A stretch of 64,000 bases of DNA from Longimicrobiales bacterium (GTDB lineage Bacteria > Gemmatimonadota > Gemmatimonadetes > Longimicrobiales > Gaopeijiaceae): NCBI GenBank assembly GCA_965198065.1, contig CBDAON010000004.1, positions 1,920,001 to 1,984,000 on the forward strand, in the 5' to 3' direction. The translations under genes were made by a program, and so were the position numbers. Shown piece by piece: positions 3,839 to 11,097 of this stretch; position 1 is the stretch's first letter; each line of letters opens with the position of its first letter. Under the pieces are notes generated by a model. That model worked only from the letters and a program-made list of their open reading frames with translations, did not search any database and was not told the origin of the DNA.

Positions 3839-4993
3839 TCAGCCCTCCGGCCGAACCGCCTGGAGAACGCACAGGATGAAATCGTCCCACGCCAGCATCT
3901 TGCTGACGACCGGGCGATCGACCCCCTGCTGTGGCACGGCACCCCCGGTGAAGAAAACGACCCGGTCGGCCAGCTCCGGAGCCTCCGCCCTCAAACCTCG
4001 GTAGATGTCGTTGGCCGAGAGATCCCTCAGGTTCAGGTCGAGGAGCACGACGTCCGGTGTTTCGGTCCGTATGCTGCCGACCGCTTGAGCGACGGACGAC
4101 CACCCGACCGGGTCCATCTCCAATGCCTCGGCACCGGAACGGCGAAGCAACCGGCCGAAGGTTCGCCGGACGGCGCTGTCATCGTCCACGATCGTCACGC
4201 AGAGGCCGGCCAGGGGGGAGCGGTCCCGGATCGGGGCCAGGTTCCCGGGCCCGCCTGGCGAGAGCCGTACCTGCCAACCATTGTGGAAAGCGGGAGGACG
4301 ACGCGGAACGTGGCTCCGCAGAGGATCGAGGGGTCCGGCTCGAACGTGAGCCCCCCCCAGCCGTTCGATGCCCCAGCGGGCGAACGAGAGGCCCAGACCG
4401 ACACCCAGGCCCGTTCCCGACACGAACGGGTCGAACAGGTGATCGGCGAGCTCGCGCGACATCCCATCGCCATCGTCTTCCACGCGAATCTCCACCTGCC
4501 CCCCGTCCGCAGTGAGCCTCACGGAGAGGCGGATCTCGGAGCGGGCGTGGCGGGCCGCGTTTCGGAGGAGGTTCCCGATCGCGCGGGAGAAGAAGCTCCG
4601 CGGCCCAGAGACCTGAACGTCCTTGCGGAGCGACGAATTCAGGGTGGTGGTCACGGCGGGGGCTCCCATGAGCCACCGATTCACCACCTCCTCGAGGGTC
4701 CCCTAGACGGGAAAGGTTAGCTCCATCGGTGTCCGGAAGCCCCGCAGCTCATCGAGGACCTCGACGACCATCCGCCGAATCTCCTCCGTGTCCGACTGGA
4801 TGCGGCTGAGCTCTTCCGACGGTGTGCGCCCGAGCGCGGCCTCTTCACGGGCAAGCGAGACGCGGCCCGCGAGAATCGAAAGGAGGCCCCCCAGGTCGTG
4901 GAGGAGCTCGCCCGTGACCCTTCCGAGCTGCCGGAGTCGCTCCTCGCGGTCCAGGGTACCATCCTCGCGCGAGCGCGTACGAGCCTCGGCCAT
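3839..4993 (-). pseudogene. Hybrid histidine kinase (HisKA-HATPase-REC) with no sensor domain, interrupted by an in-frame TAG (4703-4705) and frameshift(s) near 4350
   Basis: H-box LLHDLGG, N-box NLLRNAARH, G1 VEDDGDG, F-box LFDPF, G2 GLGVGLGL, and REC VTIVDDD...VVLLD...FFTG. ORFs 4703-4993 and 3839-4687 share a frame across the TAG. Confidence 0.8.
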
Positions 4994-4998
4994 CGGTC

Positions 4999-5817
4999 CT
5001 ACCTCTTGTCCGCCGCGTCGTCGCGGAACTCTTCGAGCTGACGCAGGAACGCGCTAGACACCGTGTCGAAGGCCCCCCTCTCTCTGAGACCCCGGGGAGT
5101 CTCGGGGATCACCGAGCGGATCGCGCGCCGAAGGGCCTGGTCTCCGGAGTAGCCGCACGCCAGGCCGACGCTGAACACGGTGTGCCCCGGGTCGTCGAGC
5201 AGGGCGGACGCGAACAACACGCGCAGCCAGAGGAGGAGCCGGCGGGGGTTCGGCAGTTGCGATCGGTGGCACCACCTAAGGAGAGTGGAAGGGGAGAACC
5301 CCAGCGATCGGGCCAGGTCCTTCGGATGGCCCCCGATCATGACGGTTTCGACGGCGGCATCCAAGAGCGTTCGTGCCCGGCCGGTCAGGGGAACGCCCGA
5401 ATCGTGCGAAAGGAGGCGTCTGAGCGGCTGCGCCCGAGCGCGGACCAGCCTTCGCGTGAGCGCCACCTGGCTGGAATCCTCGTCGTTCTGGAGGATCTCG
5501 GCTATACCCCACTCTCCGAGAGTCCAGATGTCTCGGTAGCGGGCCGGGGCCGTATCCAGAGCCACGATGACCGTAGACGAGGGAAAGGCGGTGAGGATCT
5601 CGTACAGTGCTGGAGAGGGACCCCCGCCGTTCGTCTGGCCGAGAAACGGATCCACGAGGACGACGGCGGCCGGCGGCGCCTCGCTCACGGCGACCCGCAG
5701 ATCCTCCCAACTGTCCACCATGGAGACTCGGAAGCGGGCGTGCGCAGCGCGCGACACCCTTTCACGGAGGCCCCCGTCCTGATGGAGGAGAAGGAGGGGG
5801 CGGGGGACGAACTTCAT
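4999..5817 (-). CDS. AraC-type HTH transcriptional regulator with a receiver-like N-terminal domain
   Basis: C-terminal PKDLARSLGFSPSTLLRW...TVFSVGLACGYSGDQALRRAIR double HTH; N-terminal LLLLHQD...VVLVD REC-like pattern; ATG at 5817. Confidence 0.8.
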   Translation of the reverse strand: MKFVPRPLLLLHQDGGLRERVSRAAHARFRVSMVDSWEDLRVAVSEAPPAAVVLVDPFLGQTNGGGPSPALYEILTAFPSSTVIVALDTAPARYRDIWTLGEWGIAEILQNDEDSSQVALTRRLVRARAQPLRRLLSHDSGVPLTGRARTLLDAAVETVMIGGHPKDLARSLGFSPSTLLRWCHRSQLPNPRRLLLWLRVLFASALLDDPGHTVFSVGLACGYSGDQALRRAIRSVIPETPRGLRERGAFDTVSSAFLRQLEEFRDDAADKR

Positions 5818-5975
5818 ATACTGACGTAATCCGTTATGGAACTGACGGGATCGGAGTGTGCTGCCCGGCACCGACCAACCCAAATTCGATCCCGTGTGTT
5901 CCCTCGTCGAACATGAACGACACCCTCAGGAAAAGGGGATTATATATCGGGGTTGACGGGCGGGGCTGCGCGCCG

Positions 5976-6164
5976 CTAAGCCTTGCTGCCCGTGTGACGG
6001 GCTGGCTTCTCGGGGCGGTATCTTAAGACCGCCTCAGCCACCTGCTTCGGTGTGGCGCCACCGTACGCGGCTTTCAACGGCTTCTTCTTCTTCTTCTCGG
6101 GTTTCCTCATGGTCATGGCTTCTTCACCTCGGTGGTGACAGATTCGGTTGATGCCTGGGAACAA
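5976..6164 (-). CDS. Small basic hypothetical protein inside the IS end
   Basis: 62-aa ORF (KPEKKKKKPLKAAYGGATPKQVAEAVLRY) lying within the IS boundaries. Confidence 0.4.
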   Translation of the reverse strand: MFPGINRICHHRGEEAMTMRKPEKKKKKPLKAAYGGATPKQVAEAVLRYRPEKPARHTGSKA

Positions 6165-6241
6165 GACAGCCTACTACGGATTTACCGGCATCATCGAGCC
6201 CAGATCCGCGACAAGAATAGCTAGTGCCTTCAATCGGGCCG

Positions 6242-6925
6242 TCAGTTCTCGGGGAACGGCTGGTAGGTCGCGTGCGGGTAGGTGCGCCTGCGGTAGGTAT
6301 CATTCATGGCAGGTGCCTGGGCTCGGCCGGACTCCAGGTAATCGATCAAGTCCCACGCCTCGTCAACTTGCTTGGTAGAGCGGTCCTTCATGCCCACGAC
6401 CGCCGTCTTGCCCACCGAGCCGCGGCCAGCACGGAGCCGCTTCGACGAGTGCTTGTTCTTCTCCCGGCCGCCGACGTAGGTTTCGTCCACTTCGACCGGT
6501 CCTTGGAAGACCATCGGCCCGATGTCGGCGAAGGCTTCCCGGATCCGCTGCTGCATGAACCACGCGGTTTTCTGCGTCACTGAGATGTCGCGGTGCAGCT
6601 TCATCGAGGACACGCCCTTGAGACTCGTGCAGTCCAGGTAGATCGCATAGGCCCACTTGCGAAGCGGAAGGGGCGAGCCCTCCATGACCGTGCCGGTCTT
6701 TGGGGAGAAGTACTTCCGGCAGTCGCGGCACCGATAGGGCATCGTCCGATGGGAGCACTCGTGCGTGTTCAGGCTTCCGCAACGCAGACAGGCCCGCTCC
6801 CCGTCCGGCCAAAGAATCGACTCGAACCACCGGCGGGCCTCGCCTTCGTCCGCGAAGCGGTCCGACAACTCCAACATCGAGATCCCCTTCCGATGAGACT
6901 TGCCGGGCGCCTTGGTGATAGCCAT
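6242..6925 (-). pseudogene. IS1595/ISXO2-like transposase, C-terminally truncated
   Basis: Zn ribbon CLRCG...YRCRDCRKYFS, KGVSSMKLHRDISVTQKTAWFM and VEVDETYVGG. Similarity appears to stop after STKQV, before the remaining DDE residues. Confidence 0.9.
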
Positions 6926-7027
6926 GTAACCTCCTGTCAGTACGCGTCTTACCGTACACTTGAAGGTAACAGTCTACGGCCCGTCTGTCAACCCTGAGAT
7001 ATAAGCCCCCAGGAAAAGGATTGGGTC

Positions 7028-7249
7028 ATACGCAAGCTCCGGCTCCTCGCGGCGGCTATCGCCCTCACCATGACGGCCGCCTGCGGTGACTTCGGCCCTA
7101 CGGCCCCCGAACCTAACGACGCCGAGAACGGGTTCCTCGGGTCGGGCGGTGGCGGCAACGGCTTCCTCGGCTCCGGTGGTGGTGGCAATGGCTTCCTCGG
7201 CTCCGGCGGCGGCGGCAACGGCTTCCTCGGCTCCGGCGGTGGAGGCTGA
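7028..7249 (+). CDS. Small lipoprotein-signal precursor peptide with 4x NGFLGSGGGG repeats (absent from the ORF track)
   Basis: Manual translation: (M/I)RKLRLLAAAIALTMTAAC-GDFGPTAPEPNDAE-(NGFLGSGGGG)4*. AAGGA lies 7 nt upstream of ATA at 7028 (alternative ATG at 7070). Repeat differences are all synonymous, and a terminator follows. Confidence 0.85.
   Translation: MRKLRLLAAAIALTMTAACGDFGPTAPEPNDAENGFLGSGGGGNGFLGSGGGGNGFLGSGGGGNGFLGSGGGG
7127..7246 (+). repeat. Four tandem 30-nt coding repeats
   Basis: aacgggttcctcgggtcgggcggtggcggc / aacggcttcctcggctccggtggtggtggc / aatggcttcctcggctccggcggcggcggc / aacggcttcctcggctccggcggtggaggc. Confidence 0.97.
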
Positions 7250-7270
7250 CGCAATCACCGCGCAGGGGTC

Positions 7271-7322
7271 GAAAGGGGGGAGGCAACGGTGGACTCGGAG
7301 CCTCCCCCCTTCCCTTCTTTGT
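7271..7322. terminator. Hairpin terminator between the convergent peptide and TPR genes
   Basis: gaaaggggggaggc...gcctccccccttc stem followed by ccttctttgtt. Confidence 0.65.
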
Positions 7323-7339
7323 TGCGATCTGCGCGGCAC

Positions 7340-8704
7340 TCACCGGTCGCTCGCGACCGACGCCTCTGCAACCGATGAGCCCTCGGGGGCTCCCGGCGCC
7401 TCTACGCCCACCTGAAGCGAGCGAAGCAGGTCGCGAGCCAGGCGGTCCGCTTCATCGGTCGACGCTGCTGGGGTCGCCGTGCGGAGTGCCCGCGCGGCCT
7501 TGACGTCAGCGTGGATCTCTTCCATGACGGACTCCGCGAGCAGCCGCACCCGCCCTTCCCGACGAGCGCGGGCGACGGACTCGGCCAGGTGAGCCGCTTC
7601 ACCGGCCTCGTCGTGGCGGCCCAGCATGAGGGCGCCCCGCGCCACCTCCACCCAGGACTCGGACACTCCCGGAGCGGGCTCGCACCGGCCGAGCTCGTTG
7701 CGCGCCCAGTCGAACGCGTCGGTGTCCCCGAGCCCCCCGGCCGCACGCGCGACGGAGCCGAGAACGGTCGGCCGCTCCACGGGCCCGACCCTCCCGAGGG
7801 TCTCGAGAAAGACCGGGAGGGCGTGCCGGCAGTCTCCGCTCTCGAGCCAGAAGTAGGCGATGTCGTGCGCGAGCCGCGGGAGACCCGAGTGGCCGCGACT
7901 GTGGGCCGCGACCGCCTCGCGGGCGTAGCTGAAGGCCCGGTCCGGGTTACCCGCCTGCCATTCCAGAGTAAAAAGGTCGTGCAGGGACCAGGCCTCGCCG
8001 TCACGGAGGCCCTGCCGCCTCGAGCGGCGAAGGGCCTTGAGAATGCTTCGACGCGCGGCCGGGATCACCCCACGGCGAAGCATCATGACGCCGTGCTGGA
8101 GGTACGCGCGGACATACGCCTCCCAGTCGCGCGCCTGGCGAGCGAGCCCGACGGCCCGATAGAGCCATGCCTCCGCGCGGCCGTATTGCGCCAGGTCCCT
8201 CGACGTGCGGCCAACGGCGAGGGCGAACGCCGGATCCGCCGGGCAAGAAAGAGCAGCGGCTTGGAGGAATTCGAGCTCGGTGCGGCGATGGCCGCGCCCC
8301 TCTGCCCAGGTCGCAATTCGCCGGCAGGCGACGGCGACGAACCCGGGGTCGGCACGTTCGGGCTCCGACAGGACCGGGATCAGGTCCTCGAGCGCTTCCG
8401 TGAGTGCGGGCTCGTCGGCCGGCGCCGTGGCGAGGATCTCCAGCTGCCGCCGATCGGCCGCACCATCATCGAACAGTTTCCAGCGGGAAGCGGCGCCCAC
8501 ATCGGCCCAAAGGATCACGGATCGGAGGGACTTCCAGAGGACGCACCCGAGCTCGCCTCCGATCTCTCCGAGGACAACGAGTCCCTCCGGACCGGGCCCG
8601 TCCCCGTCGTGGACCAGAGGAGGAGGAATCCTCCAGCGCCTCTTCGCGACGGTGGGGTTCGTTTCGCGCGTTGGCGCACCGCGTCCGAGCTCGGCTGCTC
8701 GCAT
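7340..8704 (-). CDS. Tetratricopeptide repeat (TPR) protein, about 454 aa, no DNA-binding or catalytic domain recognised
   Basis: Helical repeats such as LAQYGRAEAWLYRAVGLARQARDWEAYVRAYLQHG, AWSLHDLFTLEWQAGNPDRAFSYAREA and LAHDIAYFWLESGD. ATG at 8704 chosen because the ORF extension to 9229 overlaps another gene. Confidence 0.8.
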   Translation of the reverse strand: MRAAELGRGAPTRETNPTVAKRRWRIPPPLVHDGDGPGPEGLVVLGEIGGELGCVLWKSLRSVILWADVGAASRWKLFDDGAADRRQLEILATAPADEPALTEALEDLIPVLSEPERADPGFVAVACRRIATWAEGRGHRRTELEFLQAAALSCPADPAFALAVGRTSRDLAQYGRAEAWLYRAVGLARQARDWEAYVRAYLQHGVMMLRRGVIPAARRSILKALRRSRRQGLRDGEAWSLHDLFTLEWQAGNPDRAFSYAREAVAAHSRGHSGLPRLAHDIAYFWLESGDCRHALPVFLETLGRVGPVERPTVLGSVARAAGGLGDTDAFDWARNELGRCEPAPGVSESWVEVARGALMLGRHDEAGEAAHLAESVARARREGRVRLLAESVMEEIHADVKAARALRTATPAASTDEADRLARDLLRSLQVGVEAPGAPEGSSVAEASVASDR

Positions 8705-8913: not shown

Positions 8914-9696
8914 CTACGGAGTCCCCACCGGAGCGCCTTCGAGAAGGGTTCGCACGGGAGGCGGCAGCTCCAGCTCGGCGGCGGTTACCCCGTTCAGCTC
9001 GACGCTCGTCACCGTGACCTCTTGGTCCTGGCCCATCACGCGCTGAATCATCCGCATGGGAATGAGCATGCCGCCGTGCTCGCGGTAATCGGAAAGGAGC
9101 GTTGTGACGGGGAGGGGCCCCATGGGCGTGAGCTCGACGTCCTCGGATGCGATGAGGAGCCCGCTGTCCGCCGAGAAGCAGTCGTGGCTTTCGCGCCCGG
9201 AGGCCCATTCGAGTCGCACCCTCCAGCACGCTTCCCCTTCGAACTCGGACAGCTCCACTGTCTCGCGTCCGGGCACGATCTCAGGATCGCGGAGGTCTCC
9301 CAGCACGTGCGCGCGCTCCCGGGCCTGCTCCAACTCGGCTCCCTCGAGGAGCATGGGGCCGAGCAGCGAGTTCATGCTCCAGCCCACGCGGCCGTCGTAG
9401 CCGAGCACCTGCTCTCCGATGCCAGGCAGAGTGGCCCGAAACACGCTCTGGTCCGGGAGAATCTGGATCACCTCGAACTCCCCCTCGATCCCAAGCCCGG
9501 CCATGGACACGGTTCCGGTGGTGCGAATGCTCAACGGTGCCAGATGCGCGTCGCTTCCCCCAATGGCTTCCACGTACCTCCTGATCAGGTCGTCCGCCGC
9601 GGGTAGCTCCTGGGCCCGGAGGGAAGGCGAGAGGAGAAGGAGGGCGAAGCCCAGGGCCGTATGAATCGAACGCTGTCTCATTATCGGTGTCTCCAT
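8914..9696 (-). CDS. Secreted beta-rich protein (DUF620/lipoprotein-sorting-like)
   Basis: Signal peptide ending LRA-QE; ADDLIRRYVEAIGG N-terminal motif; SDYREHGGMLIP C-terminal motif. Confidence 0.7.
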   Translation of the reverse strand: METPIMRQRSIHTALGFALLLLSPSLRAQELPAADDLIRRYVEAIGGSDAHLAPLSIRTTGTVSMAGLGIEGEFEVIQILPDQSVFRATLPGIGEQVLGYDGRVGWSMNSLLGPMLLEGAELEQARERAHVLGDLRDPEIVPGRETVELSEFEGEACWRVRLEWASGRESHDCFSADSGLLIASEDVELTPMGPLPVTTLLSDYREHGGMLIPMRMIQRVMGQDQEVTVTSVELNGVTAAELELPPPVRTLLEGAPVGTP

Positions 9697-9705
9697 ATGG
9701 CTCGG

Positions 9706-11097
9706 TCAGCGGGGGCCCGATACGGGGGCCGACGCACCCGGAAGCGAGCCCAGCCAGTCCAACGCAGCTGCGAGCGCGACGTCCCTCCCCGCGAGGAGGG
9801 ACTCACGGCTCGGTGCTCGCGGGACATCGGGCTGCACTCCCGACCCCTCGAGCCGCGATCCGTCCGGTGCCGTGAAGTCGGCGACCACGTGCATCATGCG
9901 GTCCCCATTGGGCAGTTCCACGACGACTGCCGGAAGCGCCTGACCGGCCGTGGGCTCCCCGAACAGCCGGGCGCGACCGAGCGCTTGGAGGCCCGCCGCG
10001 AAGAACTCCGAGGTGCTGGCGGTCAGCGGATCCACGAGGATGGCCACCGGTCCCGCGTAGGGCTCCACGCGGCGCCCGTCCGGAGCGACGCGCTGAGGGT
10101 TCACGACGAACTGGAGCTCCGTGTCCCGGGTACGCATCGCGCCGAGGCTGACGGGCTCGTCGAGGAAGTGCCCCCCGATCCCCATGGCGAGGGCGCCGAG
10201 CCTCCCGGGGTTCCCCCGGAGATCCAGCACGATGCCGTGGGCATCGCGCAGTTCGTCCACGGCCGCGGCGACGGCGGGCACGATCGCCGGGAACCAGGCT
10301 GACCAGCGGACGACTCCGACCCGCTGGCCGCCGGTCAGGATCTCCTCCCGGAAGTCGGCGTCCACGCGAAGCGGCGGGAGATTTCCGAAGCGCACCTCCT
10401 CCCCTGCCGGAGGAGCACGGTCGACGTCGAAAACGATGGGCGCACTGGAACCGTCCCGAAACCCAAGCCGGACCGGCGTTCCCTCTGGTCCGAGCAGCCG
10501 CCGCTCGACGGCTTCCGGGAGCCAGAGCGCGAACTCGCGTTCCTCCGTGCGATCGGGAACGGCCGCCCGGATCCGCTGGACCAGGCTGTCTACCGGAAGG
10601 CCTGCGATGGACTCGAGGATCCAGCCGGGTTGAATGCCTGCGACGGCCGCGGGGCTTTCCTCTCGGACTCGCGCGACCACGACCGCGCCGTCCAGCCAGC
10701 GGATGCCCAGGCCAGGGCTCGCGTTGCCCTGCGGCGGACCGACCGGATCCACGCCCAACAGCCCCACCGCCGAGCCGGGAATGATCGTGAAGTGCGACTC
10801 TCCGAGCCGCCCGAGCATCTCGGACAACACGCGCCGAAGCTCGCTCGGGCTCTCGGCCGCGACCGCACGCGGCCGGAGCTCCGCACGCACCGCATCCCAA
10901 TCCAGGCCGCGCATGCCGGGGTCGTAGTATGTGTCGCGTATCCGATTCCACACGAAGTCGAACGTGACCTGCGGGGAAGCCGTCCCCGGGGAGGAGGGAG
11001 GCTGACGGAGCGCGGCGGCGGCCGGCGGCGAAAGAACGGAAACGGCGACGCCTACCGCGAACAGGCCACGCCTGCCGTTCCTGGGTGAAGTCAACAC
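9706..11097 (-). CDS. S41-family peptidase with PDZ domain (secreted)
   Basis: Signal peptide; PDZ SPAAVAGIQPG; IVLDLRGNPG; TASTSEFFAAG catalytic Ser region; LEGSGVQPD. Confidence 0.9.
   Translation of the reverse strand: MLTSPRNGRRGLFAVGVAVSVLSPPAAAALRQPPSSPGTASPQVTFDFVWNRIRDTYYDPGMRGLDWDAVRAELRPRAVAAESPSELRRVLSEMLGRLGESHFTIIPGSAVGLLGVDPVGPPQGNASPGLGIRWLDGAVVVARVREESPAAVAGIQPGWILESIAGLPVDSLVQRIRAAVPDRTEEREFALWLPEAVERRLLGPEGTPVRLGFRDGSSAPIVFDVDRAPPAGEEVRFGNLPPLRVDADFREEILTGGQRVGVVRWSAWFPAIVPAVAAAVDELRDAHGIVLDLRGNPGRLGALAMGIGGHFLDEPVSLGAMRTRDTELQFVVNPQRVAPDGRRVEPYAGPVAILVDPLTASTSEFFAAGLQALGRARLFGEPTAGQALPAVVVELPNGDRMMHVVADFTAPDGSRLEGSGVQPDVPRAPSRESLLAGRDVALAAALDWLGSLPGASAPVSGPR

Follow-up and report, generated by a model that had tools for sequence, protein, structure and literature searches.

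Among the peptide signalling systems with TPR receptors, the RapC/RapF-Phr-ComA circuits, within the HTH-less branch of RRNPP, offer the closest mechanistic comparison for the locus described here, and NprR and PlcR carry an HTH of their own. TPR-receptor peptide signalling is described for Bacillota in the available text of two sources (PMC10075063, PMC9765709). In the available part of the latter, RRNPPA systems include repeated mature peptides, orphan receptors and, in 211 of 2,734 cases, SPII-type propeptides; NprR and AimR often have multi-copy propeptides (PMC9765709).

The locus lies in a window of 64,000 nucleotides (the whole stretch of DNA that was analysed) from contig CBDAON010000004.1 of a Longimicrobiales bacterium of the phylum Gemmatimonadota. 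We consider it reasonably probable that its open reading frame at 7028-7249 belongs, as the lipopeptide gene, to a conserved Gemmatimonadota TPR-lipopeptide-AraC cassette, likely a Rap/Phr-like circuit, and that the window's copy of this gene, with an ATA start and an upstream IS1595 element, is probably silenced. As in the Rap-Phr pairs of Bacillus, to the extent that the available text of PMC10075063 and PMC9765709 covers them, the gene of a propeptide predicted to be exported stands beside that of an HTH-less cytoplasmic TPR protein of 250-500 aa, the cores are C-terminal and sometimes repeated, and there are many paralogous pairs, orphan receptors and a partner of the response-regulator type. 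In contrast to those pairs, the host is a diderm outside Bacillota, the predicted SPII signal is the rule, compared with 211 of 2,734 cases there (PMC9765709, available part), and the peptide gene converges with the receptor gene and diverges from the receiver-AraC gene; moreover, sequence homology of the TPR protein to Rap was not found. NprR-NprX, PlcR-PapR and AimR-AimP likewise combine a TPR receptor with an adjacent propeptide, whereas DNA binding, which NprR and PlcR perform themselves, is assigned here to a separate AraC protein. A MAIN-domain system (10.64898/2026.05.12.724683) was set aside as a match, being a different system in the available part of its description.

The precursor, at 73 aa, falls within the 10-100 aa range used to screen for RRNPP/RRNPPA propeptides, the cytoplasmic TPR protein, at 454 aa, falls within 250-500 aa, and the two genes are adjacent in 21/21 scorable relatives. 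The locus agrees with four of the five screening criteria in the available text of PMC10075063, and the fifth, Sec export, is present by n-region, h-region and lipobox pattern only. Among the Pfam and NCBIfam matches of the cassette there was no RRNPP model, no RRNPP receptor appeared among 60 of the 61 PDB sequence matches listed for the TPR protein, and Foldseek ranked LGN and consensus TPRs first, with Rap chains at ranks 48 and 50 (9-10% identity). Because no homology to RRNPP receptors was found and the host does not belong to Bacillota, membership of RRNPP/RRNPPA is not claimed.

The lipopeptide precursor gene

The frame at 7028..7249 (+) is a real small lipoprotein-type gene encoding a lipopeptide precursor of 73 aa, identified from its translation, near-identical proteins and contigs of public runs; its start codon is an ATG that has mutated to ATA in the window. 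The translation reads IRKLRLLAAAIALTMTAAC-GDFGPTAPEPNDAE-(NGFLGSGGGG)x4-stop. A basic n-region and an h-region (best 11-residue hydropathy 2.15) make up a predicted Sec/SPII signal peptide (7028..7084, +) that ends in the lipobox T-A-A-C, whose Cys19 (7082-7084) is present in 21/21 scorable relatives; these lipoprotein features are recognized by sequence pattern. A linker of 14 acidic/Pro-type residues leads from the lipobox to the four NGFLGSGGGG cores, which repeat in a 30-nt unit (7127..7246, +; TRF, 4.0 copies). An internal ATG at 7070 would yield 59 aa. A first-pass annotation, made from the letters of the DNA, had proposed a lipoprotein-type precursor with four identical cores running to the stop, and both the translation and TRF agree with it, as they do with its reading of the n-region, h-region, TAAC site, linker and internal start. 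An AGGA site resembling a ribosome-binding site (7017..7020, +) lies 7 nt ahead of the start codon, and AGGAG or GGAG occurs at the equivalent place in relatives.

The repeats themselves provide evidence for the reading frame. Seven repeat columns vary, all of them third codon positions, and the eight minor alleles are silent without exception (8/8), an outcome with a probability of about 5e-5 given that 29% of single changes are silent; the remaining five frames would have 2-7 of 9 residues changed across the repeats. The peptide frame also has the highest codon score of the six (0.137; the TPR and AraC genes score 0.111 and 0.108). The silent character of the repeat differences had been noticed in the first-pass annotation and attributed to purifying selection. 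The selection signal stands; however, considering that the native start is ATG, it records the history of the gene and is not proof that the ATA allele in the window is translated.

Database searches with the peptides returned little. The best score in an ESM Atlas search, 0.81, is a lead only, and Pfam and NCBIfam searches with 26 peptides gave weak matches of the signal-peptide type only; neither database contains a model for these peptides. A motif scan of the window's own genome revealed no second multi-copy peptide of the NGFLGSGGGG kind, and that genome holds a single TPR gene and a single AraC gene of the cassette type.

Neighbouring genes and a candidate operator

The candidate receptor is an intact, cytoplasmic TPR protein of 454 aa with an N-terminal RRWRxPPP motif (7340..8704, -), recognized by domain search and structure modelling. 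It reaches 29.6 bits against TPR_12 (cut-off 30.1), lacks a signal peptide, HTH or enzyme domain, and is modelled as an all-helical repeat fold (pLDDT 90.5); a hydrophobic N-terminus is absent from it and from 124/124 relatives. The four repeated tails of the precursor are likely peptide signals for this protein. The two genes are convergent, with 90 nt between their stop codons, and the interval contains a perfect 12-bp inverted repeat (7273..7311) that is terminator-like and failed the consensus scan; a scan for sigma-70 promoters and terminators found none in 5700-7500.

Divergent from the peptide gene is an intact gene for a receiver-like regulator with an AraC HTH_18 domain (4999..5817, -). 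It is followed by a gene for a HisKA-HATPase-receiver hybrid kinase (3839..4993, -), which domain search and strain comparison show to carry a premature TAG in the window strain, and then by the only lgt of the genome. A dedicated role of lgt in the cassette was ruled out, as it is the sole lgt in its own genome and in four relatives.

On the other side of the cassette, upstream of the TPR gene, positions 8914-11097 encode an S41/PDZ protease and an unannotated exported protein, the latter with homologs in 2/25 related loci. The protease (9706-11097) was rejected as a processing enzyme because it was not found in the flanks retrieved for relatives. In four clade relatives (L068-L070 and L079), an AbgT-family transporter gene, absent from the window, occupies the position upstream of the TPR gene. 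The own genome also has two SBP_bac_5 genes, at sites unlinked to the cassette.

Sites of AraC-family proteins are typically direct repeats two helical turns apart. Between the AraC and peptide genes, a direct repeat of the TGACGGAATC type with 21-bp spacing (5822..5852, +) represents a candidate AraC operator; it is kept in the window and in 9/9 aligned clade relatives, with both halves near-perfect in 6. Without the insertion sequence, some 92 nt separate the repeat from the peptide start; the insertion adds 1,083 bp. A repeat matrix built without the window ranked the window site first in its own genome, which is expected from orthology and therefore shows conservation only. A wider regulon was unconvincing, with 7 sites at 21-bp spacing (the cassette's own included) versus 3 at each of four control spacings, and in Longimicrobium-type loci the motif was not found at convincing scores.

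Distribution of the cassette and diversity of the cores

As judged from gene order and homology, the cassette comprises a TPR protein, an antisense lipopeptide and a divergent receiver-AraC regulator, with the kinase-receiver gene added in the window clade. The TPR family is present in 15/41 genomes of the order (the own genome and G025 counted), and each of five genomes of one genus (Longimicrobium-type) has 15-20 matches. Across a sample of the phylum, a TPR match (E up to 1e-20) was present in 16/301 genomes, scoring being limited to 6 candidates per genome. A profile search returned 1,137 clusters at 50% identity (E up to 1e-30); of the 20 rows behind the TPR profile and the structure model, one comes from G025.

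Searching GTDB contigs with patterns derived from five close sequences recovered 25 TPR loci, and 25/25 of the named loci belong, by record title, to Gemmatimonadota. Homologous small ORFs were found in relatives: an antisense lipobox ORF lies just downstream of the TPR gene in 21 of the 25 loci, 19 of them recognized by pattern and 2 by eye, and the other four loci stop at a contig edge. The background of such ORFs in the own genome is 0.16% per 300 nt; the pattern admitted AxA sites as well, and 19/19 matches had the lipobox Cys. The AraC gene is within 3.5 kb of the TPR gene in 9/25 loci and hence is not universal. Among nine distant TPRs from other families (E ~1e-22 to 1e-28), six had a lipobox ORF and eight an AraC homolog. 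In a 71-row TPR set, a peptide was recognized by pattern in 51; the other 20 comprise 3 at contig ends, 3 with a peptide missed by the pattern or search window, and ~14 that are apparently peptide-less. Linkage to lgt is limited to the window clade.

Several variants of the arrangement were observed. Tandem sets of 2-3 TPR genes with peptide and AraC genes interleaved occur at L098, L106, L107 and L108 (G039, G027), and six homologs of 707-884 aa (P0007, P0008, P0026, P0040, P0060, P0071) contain two matched TPR stretches. Among 10 long homologs, mostly TPR duplications or extensions, there was no TPR-AraC fusion that would have favoured an interaction of the two proteins. At L083:4786-6257 and L084:4829-6008, a kinase-receiver gene or a receiver-LuxR regulator follows the peptide and replaces AraC. 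Clades were taken from a quick-version tree; one clade of six TPRs is without its own peptide, and another (L080, L085-L087, L090, L091, L096) lies upstream of an acyl-CoA dehydrogenase gene, followed in several loci by a CoA-transferase gene. In most peptides of this dehydrogenase-linked clade, the core is internal and a Thr/Pro-rich tail follows.

Across the family, the cores retain a hydrophobic-G-S-G shape (xx-hydrophobic-GSG type) and the linker varies freely, with Cys pairs in some relatives; a conserved cleavage site is missing from the cores, some of which are internal. In each of two genomes, the paralogs differ in their cores, which often occur in 2-3 copies; examples are GWMGGGG, FGIGAGN, GAAGSGH, YVIGSGN and FGLGSGN. 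The option of a signal precursor, raised in the first-pass annotation, gains support from the cassette linkage and these paralog-specific cores. Cores are alike within TPR clades, a likeness among related TPRs that is expected from shared descent. Copy number varies at close range, with 2 cores in X7, P0004 and P0005 and 3 related copies in P0006; since the window's nearest relatives carry just one core each (e.g., GYIGSD, GYIGSG and GGMGSG), the four-copy state is a recent expansion.

Annotations of peptide homologs go no further than lipoprotein or hypothetical, and one homolog occurs in the cultured Longimicrobium terrae. No description of a TPR-lipopeptide-AraC cassette was found in the literature full text covered, a body from which most subscription journals and supplements are absent.

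A putative circuit and its main rival

Binding of the peptide by the TPR protein, in a manner analogous to Rap/Phr, appears to be the best reading of the cassette. What is established is the anatomy of the gene, its linkage, the diversification of the cores, the conserved repeat and the lesions described below; export is predicted. In a strain with an intact allele, the AraC regulator would bind the 21-bp-spaced repeat and turn on the divergent peptide gene. The lipobox predicts that Sec exports the precursor, that Cys19 is lipidated and that signal peptidase II cuts the precursor. Envelope proteases could then free as many as four GFLGSG(G) cores from each precursor, and a core might re-enter the cytoplasm and bind the groove of the HTH-less TPR protein. 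By analogy with RapC/RapF-ComA, the TPR protein would keep the receiver-AraC regulator inactive until the peptide binds, and release of AraC by the peptide would create positive feedback. Asn-backbone contacts are typical of RRNPP receptors, whereas conserved Asn columns in the TPR family are few (2 at 40% or more).

The step from envelope to cytoplasm is where the main rival explanation enters. A lipid anchor combined with two membranes would make release and re-import difficult, and the neighbours scanned included no protease or importer conserved beside the cassette. These observations would suit a cell-autonomous sensor of export or the envelope, in which the lipopeptide would monitor Sec/Lgt/Lsp function, precursor left behind in the cytoplasm would bind the TPR protein there, and no cell-to-cell signal would exist: the invariant lipobox would tether the peptide, passage back over two membranes would be unnecessary, and in the window clade the cassette stands just upstream of the sole lgt. 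However, that linkage is restricted to this clade, and the 15-20 TPR paralogs per Longimicrobium-type genome, with their paralog-specific cores, fit private channels better. We therefore regard an export sensor as rather unlikely and prefer the Rap/Phr-like reading.

Lesions in the window lineage

Four public runs from four studies (X1, X3, X4 and X7) were compared at the locus; contig depths are ~2-5 in X3, X4 and X7, and each allele state was seen in two studies. The contigs of X1, probably the source run of the window, and of X3, from another study, match the window at 7028-7030 (ATA) and also carry the insertion sequence and the kinase TAG. In X4 and X7, which represent the same species, the contigs jump from 5926 to 7010 and thus lack the insertion, the peptide starts with ATG, and GAG stands at the position of the kinase stop. 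X4 has four cores and X7 two. Met likewise occupies the start position in the near-identical proteins P0003 (four repeats), P0004 and P0005 (two repeats each), and the P0005 frame continues through DNA without the upstream insertion. An assembly error behind ATA was ruled out by its presence in both X1 and X3. The ATA start proposed in the first-pass annotation is thus present in the data but is a mutated ATG and not the normal state of the gene.

The insertion belongs to the IS1595 family (5935..7009, -). It has 30-nt terminal inverted repeats (83% complementary) and an 8-bp target duplication, CAGGAAAA, at 5927-5934 and 7010-7017, and its transposase (6925..6242) is of the Zn-ribbon plus DDE type, in agreement with the family criteria; the protein is truncated, with the C-terminal half of the DDE model missing. 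The element sits 10 bp upstream of the peptide gene, between this gene and the 21-bp-spaced repeat. The open frame from 6998, inside the element, offers no ATG, GTG or TTG as an alternative in-frame start. A short basic ORF is located near its left end (~5978-6112, minus strand), and the own genome contains ~17 more IS1595-type transposase matches, three of them alike.

The third lesion is the premature TAG at 4703-4705 of the kinase gene, which is a single open frame in 10/10 relatives. In the same gene, the stretch 4260-4350 is seemingly frameshifted relative to X7, which lacks 2 nt at 4260 and has 2 extra nt at 4350. The three lesions (ATG to ATA, IS1595 and the kinase TAG) travel together in the window lineage and indicate that the window copy of the peptide gene is probably silenced. 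Both the partner genes and the IS1595 element were absent from the first-pass annotation, and in their light inactivation of the window allele is the probable outcome. Strain differences, given as silent/replacing changes, number 7/6 in the TPR gene, 1/0 in the AraC gene and 4/8 in the kinase gene, too few to conclude from. Because changes at conserved TPR or kinase positions are also present in the IS-free strains, these strains may not be fully functional either.

AUA initiation in E. coli reaches 1-2% of AUG in the available part of one report (10.1101/063800), and the ribosome-binding site, frame and four cores are intact in the window, in an allele whose IS and ATA recur in two studies (X1 and X3). 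These facts would accord with an allele that is still active, in which ATA serves as a weak start, the insertion supplies or permits transcription, and four cores offset the lowered output. Such activity is nevertheless distinctly unlikely. Four cores also accompany ATG without the insertion (X4, P0003), so the expansion is not compensation for ATA or the IS; the lineage also carries the kinase stop; the 5700-7500 interval has no promoter-like site; and a congener is without the cassette at this locus. That congener, G001 (1.6 Mb, 92% complete), has kept lgt, ettA and HU, but of the cassette itself just a receiver remnant is left; the queries used found neither TPR nor AraC in it. At L114 (G001:C23), positions 5154-7907 hold the receiver remnant where the window has the cassette, the S41 protease and its lipoprotein.

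Probable silencing in the window lineage leaves the TPR and AraC genes intact, so that the strain would not produce the peptide but may still respond to it.

Other readings of the precursor

The same gene could encode a plain small surface lipoprotein with a Gly-rich tail, its linkage to TPR being historical and functionally meaningless. The annotation of homologs as lipoprotein or hypothetical would agree with this, as would the low-complexity GSG/GGG tracts, which expand easily (2 or 4 copies in the species); yet the tail-to-tail linkage persists across families and many duplications, and the core alone is conserved next to a freely varying linker, which makes this explanation improbable. 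Still less probable is a RiPP precursor with enzymatically modified cores and a TPR scaffold, an option of the first-pass annotation for which the leader-like N-terminus followed by multi-copy cores, linker Cys pairs in some relatives and one marginal NCBIfam RiPP match among 26 peptides (E 0.048) can be cited, but the 'leader' is a secretion signal with a lipobox, no maturase or RiPP recognition domain lies nearby, the window neighbours are regulatory or housekeeping genes, the TPR protein is without a catalytic domain, and 0/44 neighbouring proteins of related loci (from 75 candidate ORFs, with TPR, AraC, Lgt and near-duplicates excluded) match a RiPP-type maturase family.

Implications

Beyond the Rap/Phr-like reading of a single locus, a broader proposal can be put forward tentatively: Gemmatimonadota may run an independently evolved, many-channel peptide pheromone system whose signals are released from lipid-anchored precursors, read by HTH-less TPR receptors and relayed to receiver-AraC activators, and in which the window lineage would be a signal-mute receiver, a cheater or eavesdropper, beside producer strains of its own species. 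If true, it would have to be explained how a peptide passes two membranes. Being short, the cores are easily synthesised, and the locus constitutes a natural control, with intact and broken alleles and two or four cores in one species. Its main contributions are this allele series and the candidate operator, together with core copy variation, a kinase-receiver fourth gene and the loss in a congener. A working circuit in a diderm phylum would widen the range of TPR-receptor peptide signalling and extend it to lipid-anchored precursors and to genomes with up to 15-20 receptor paralogs.
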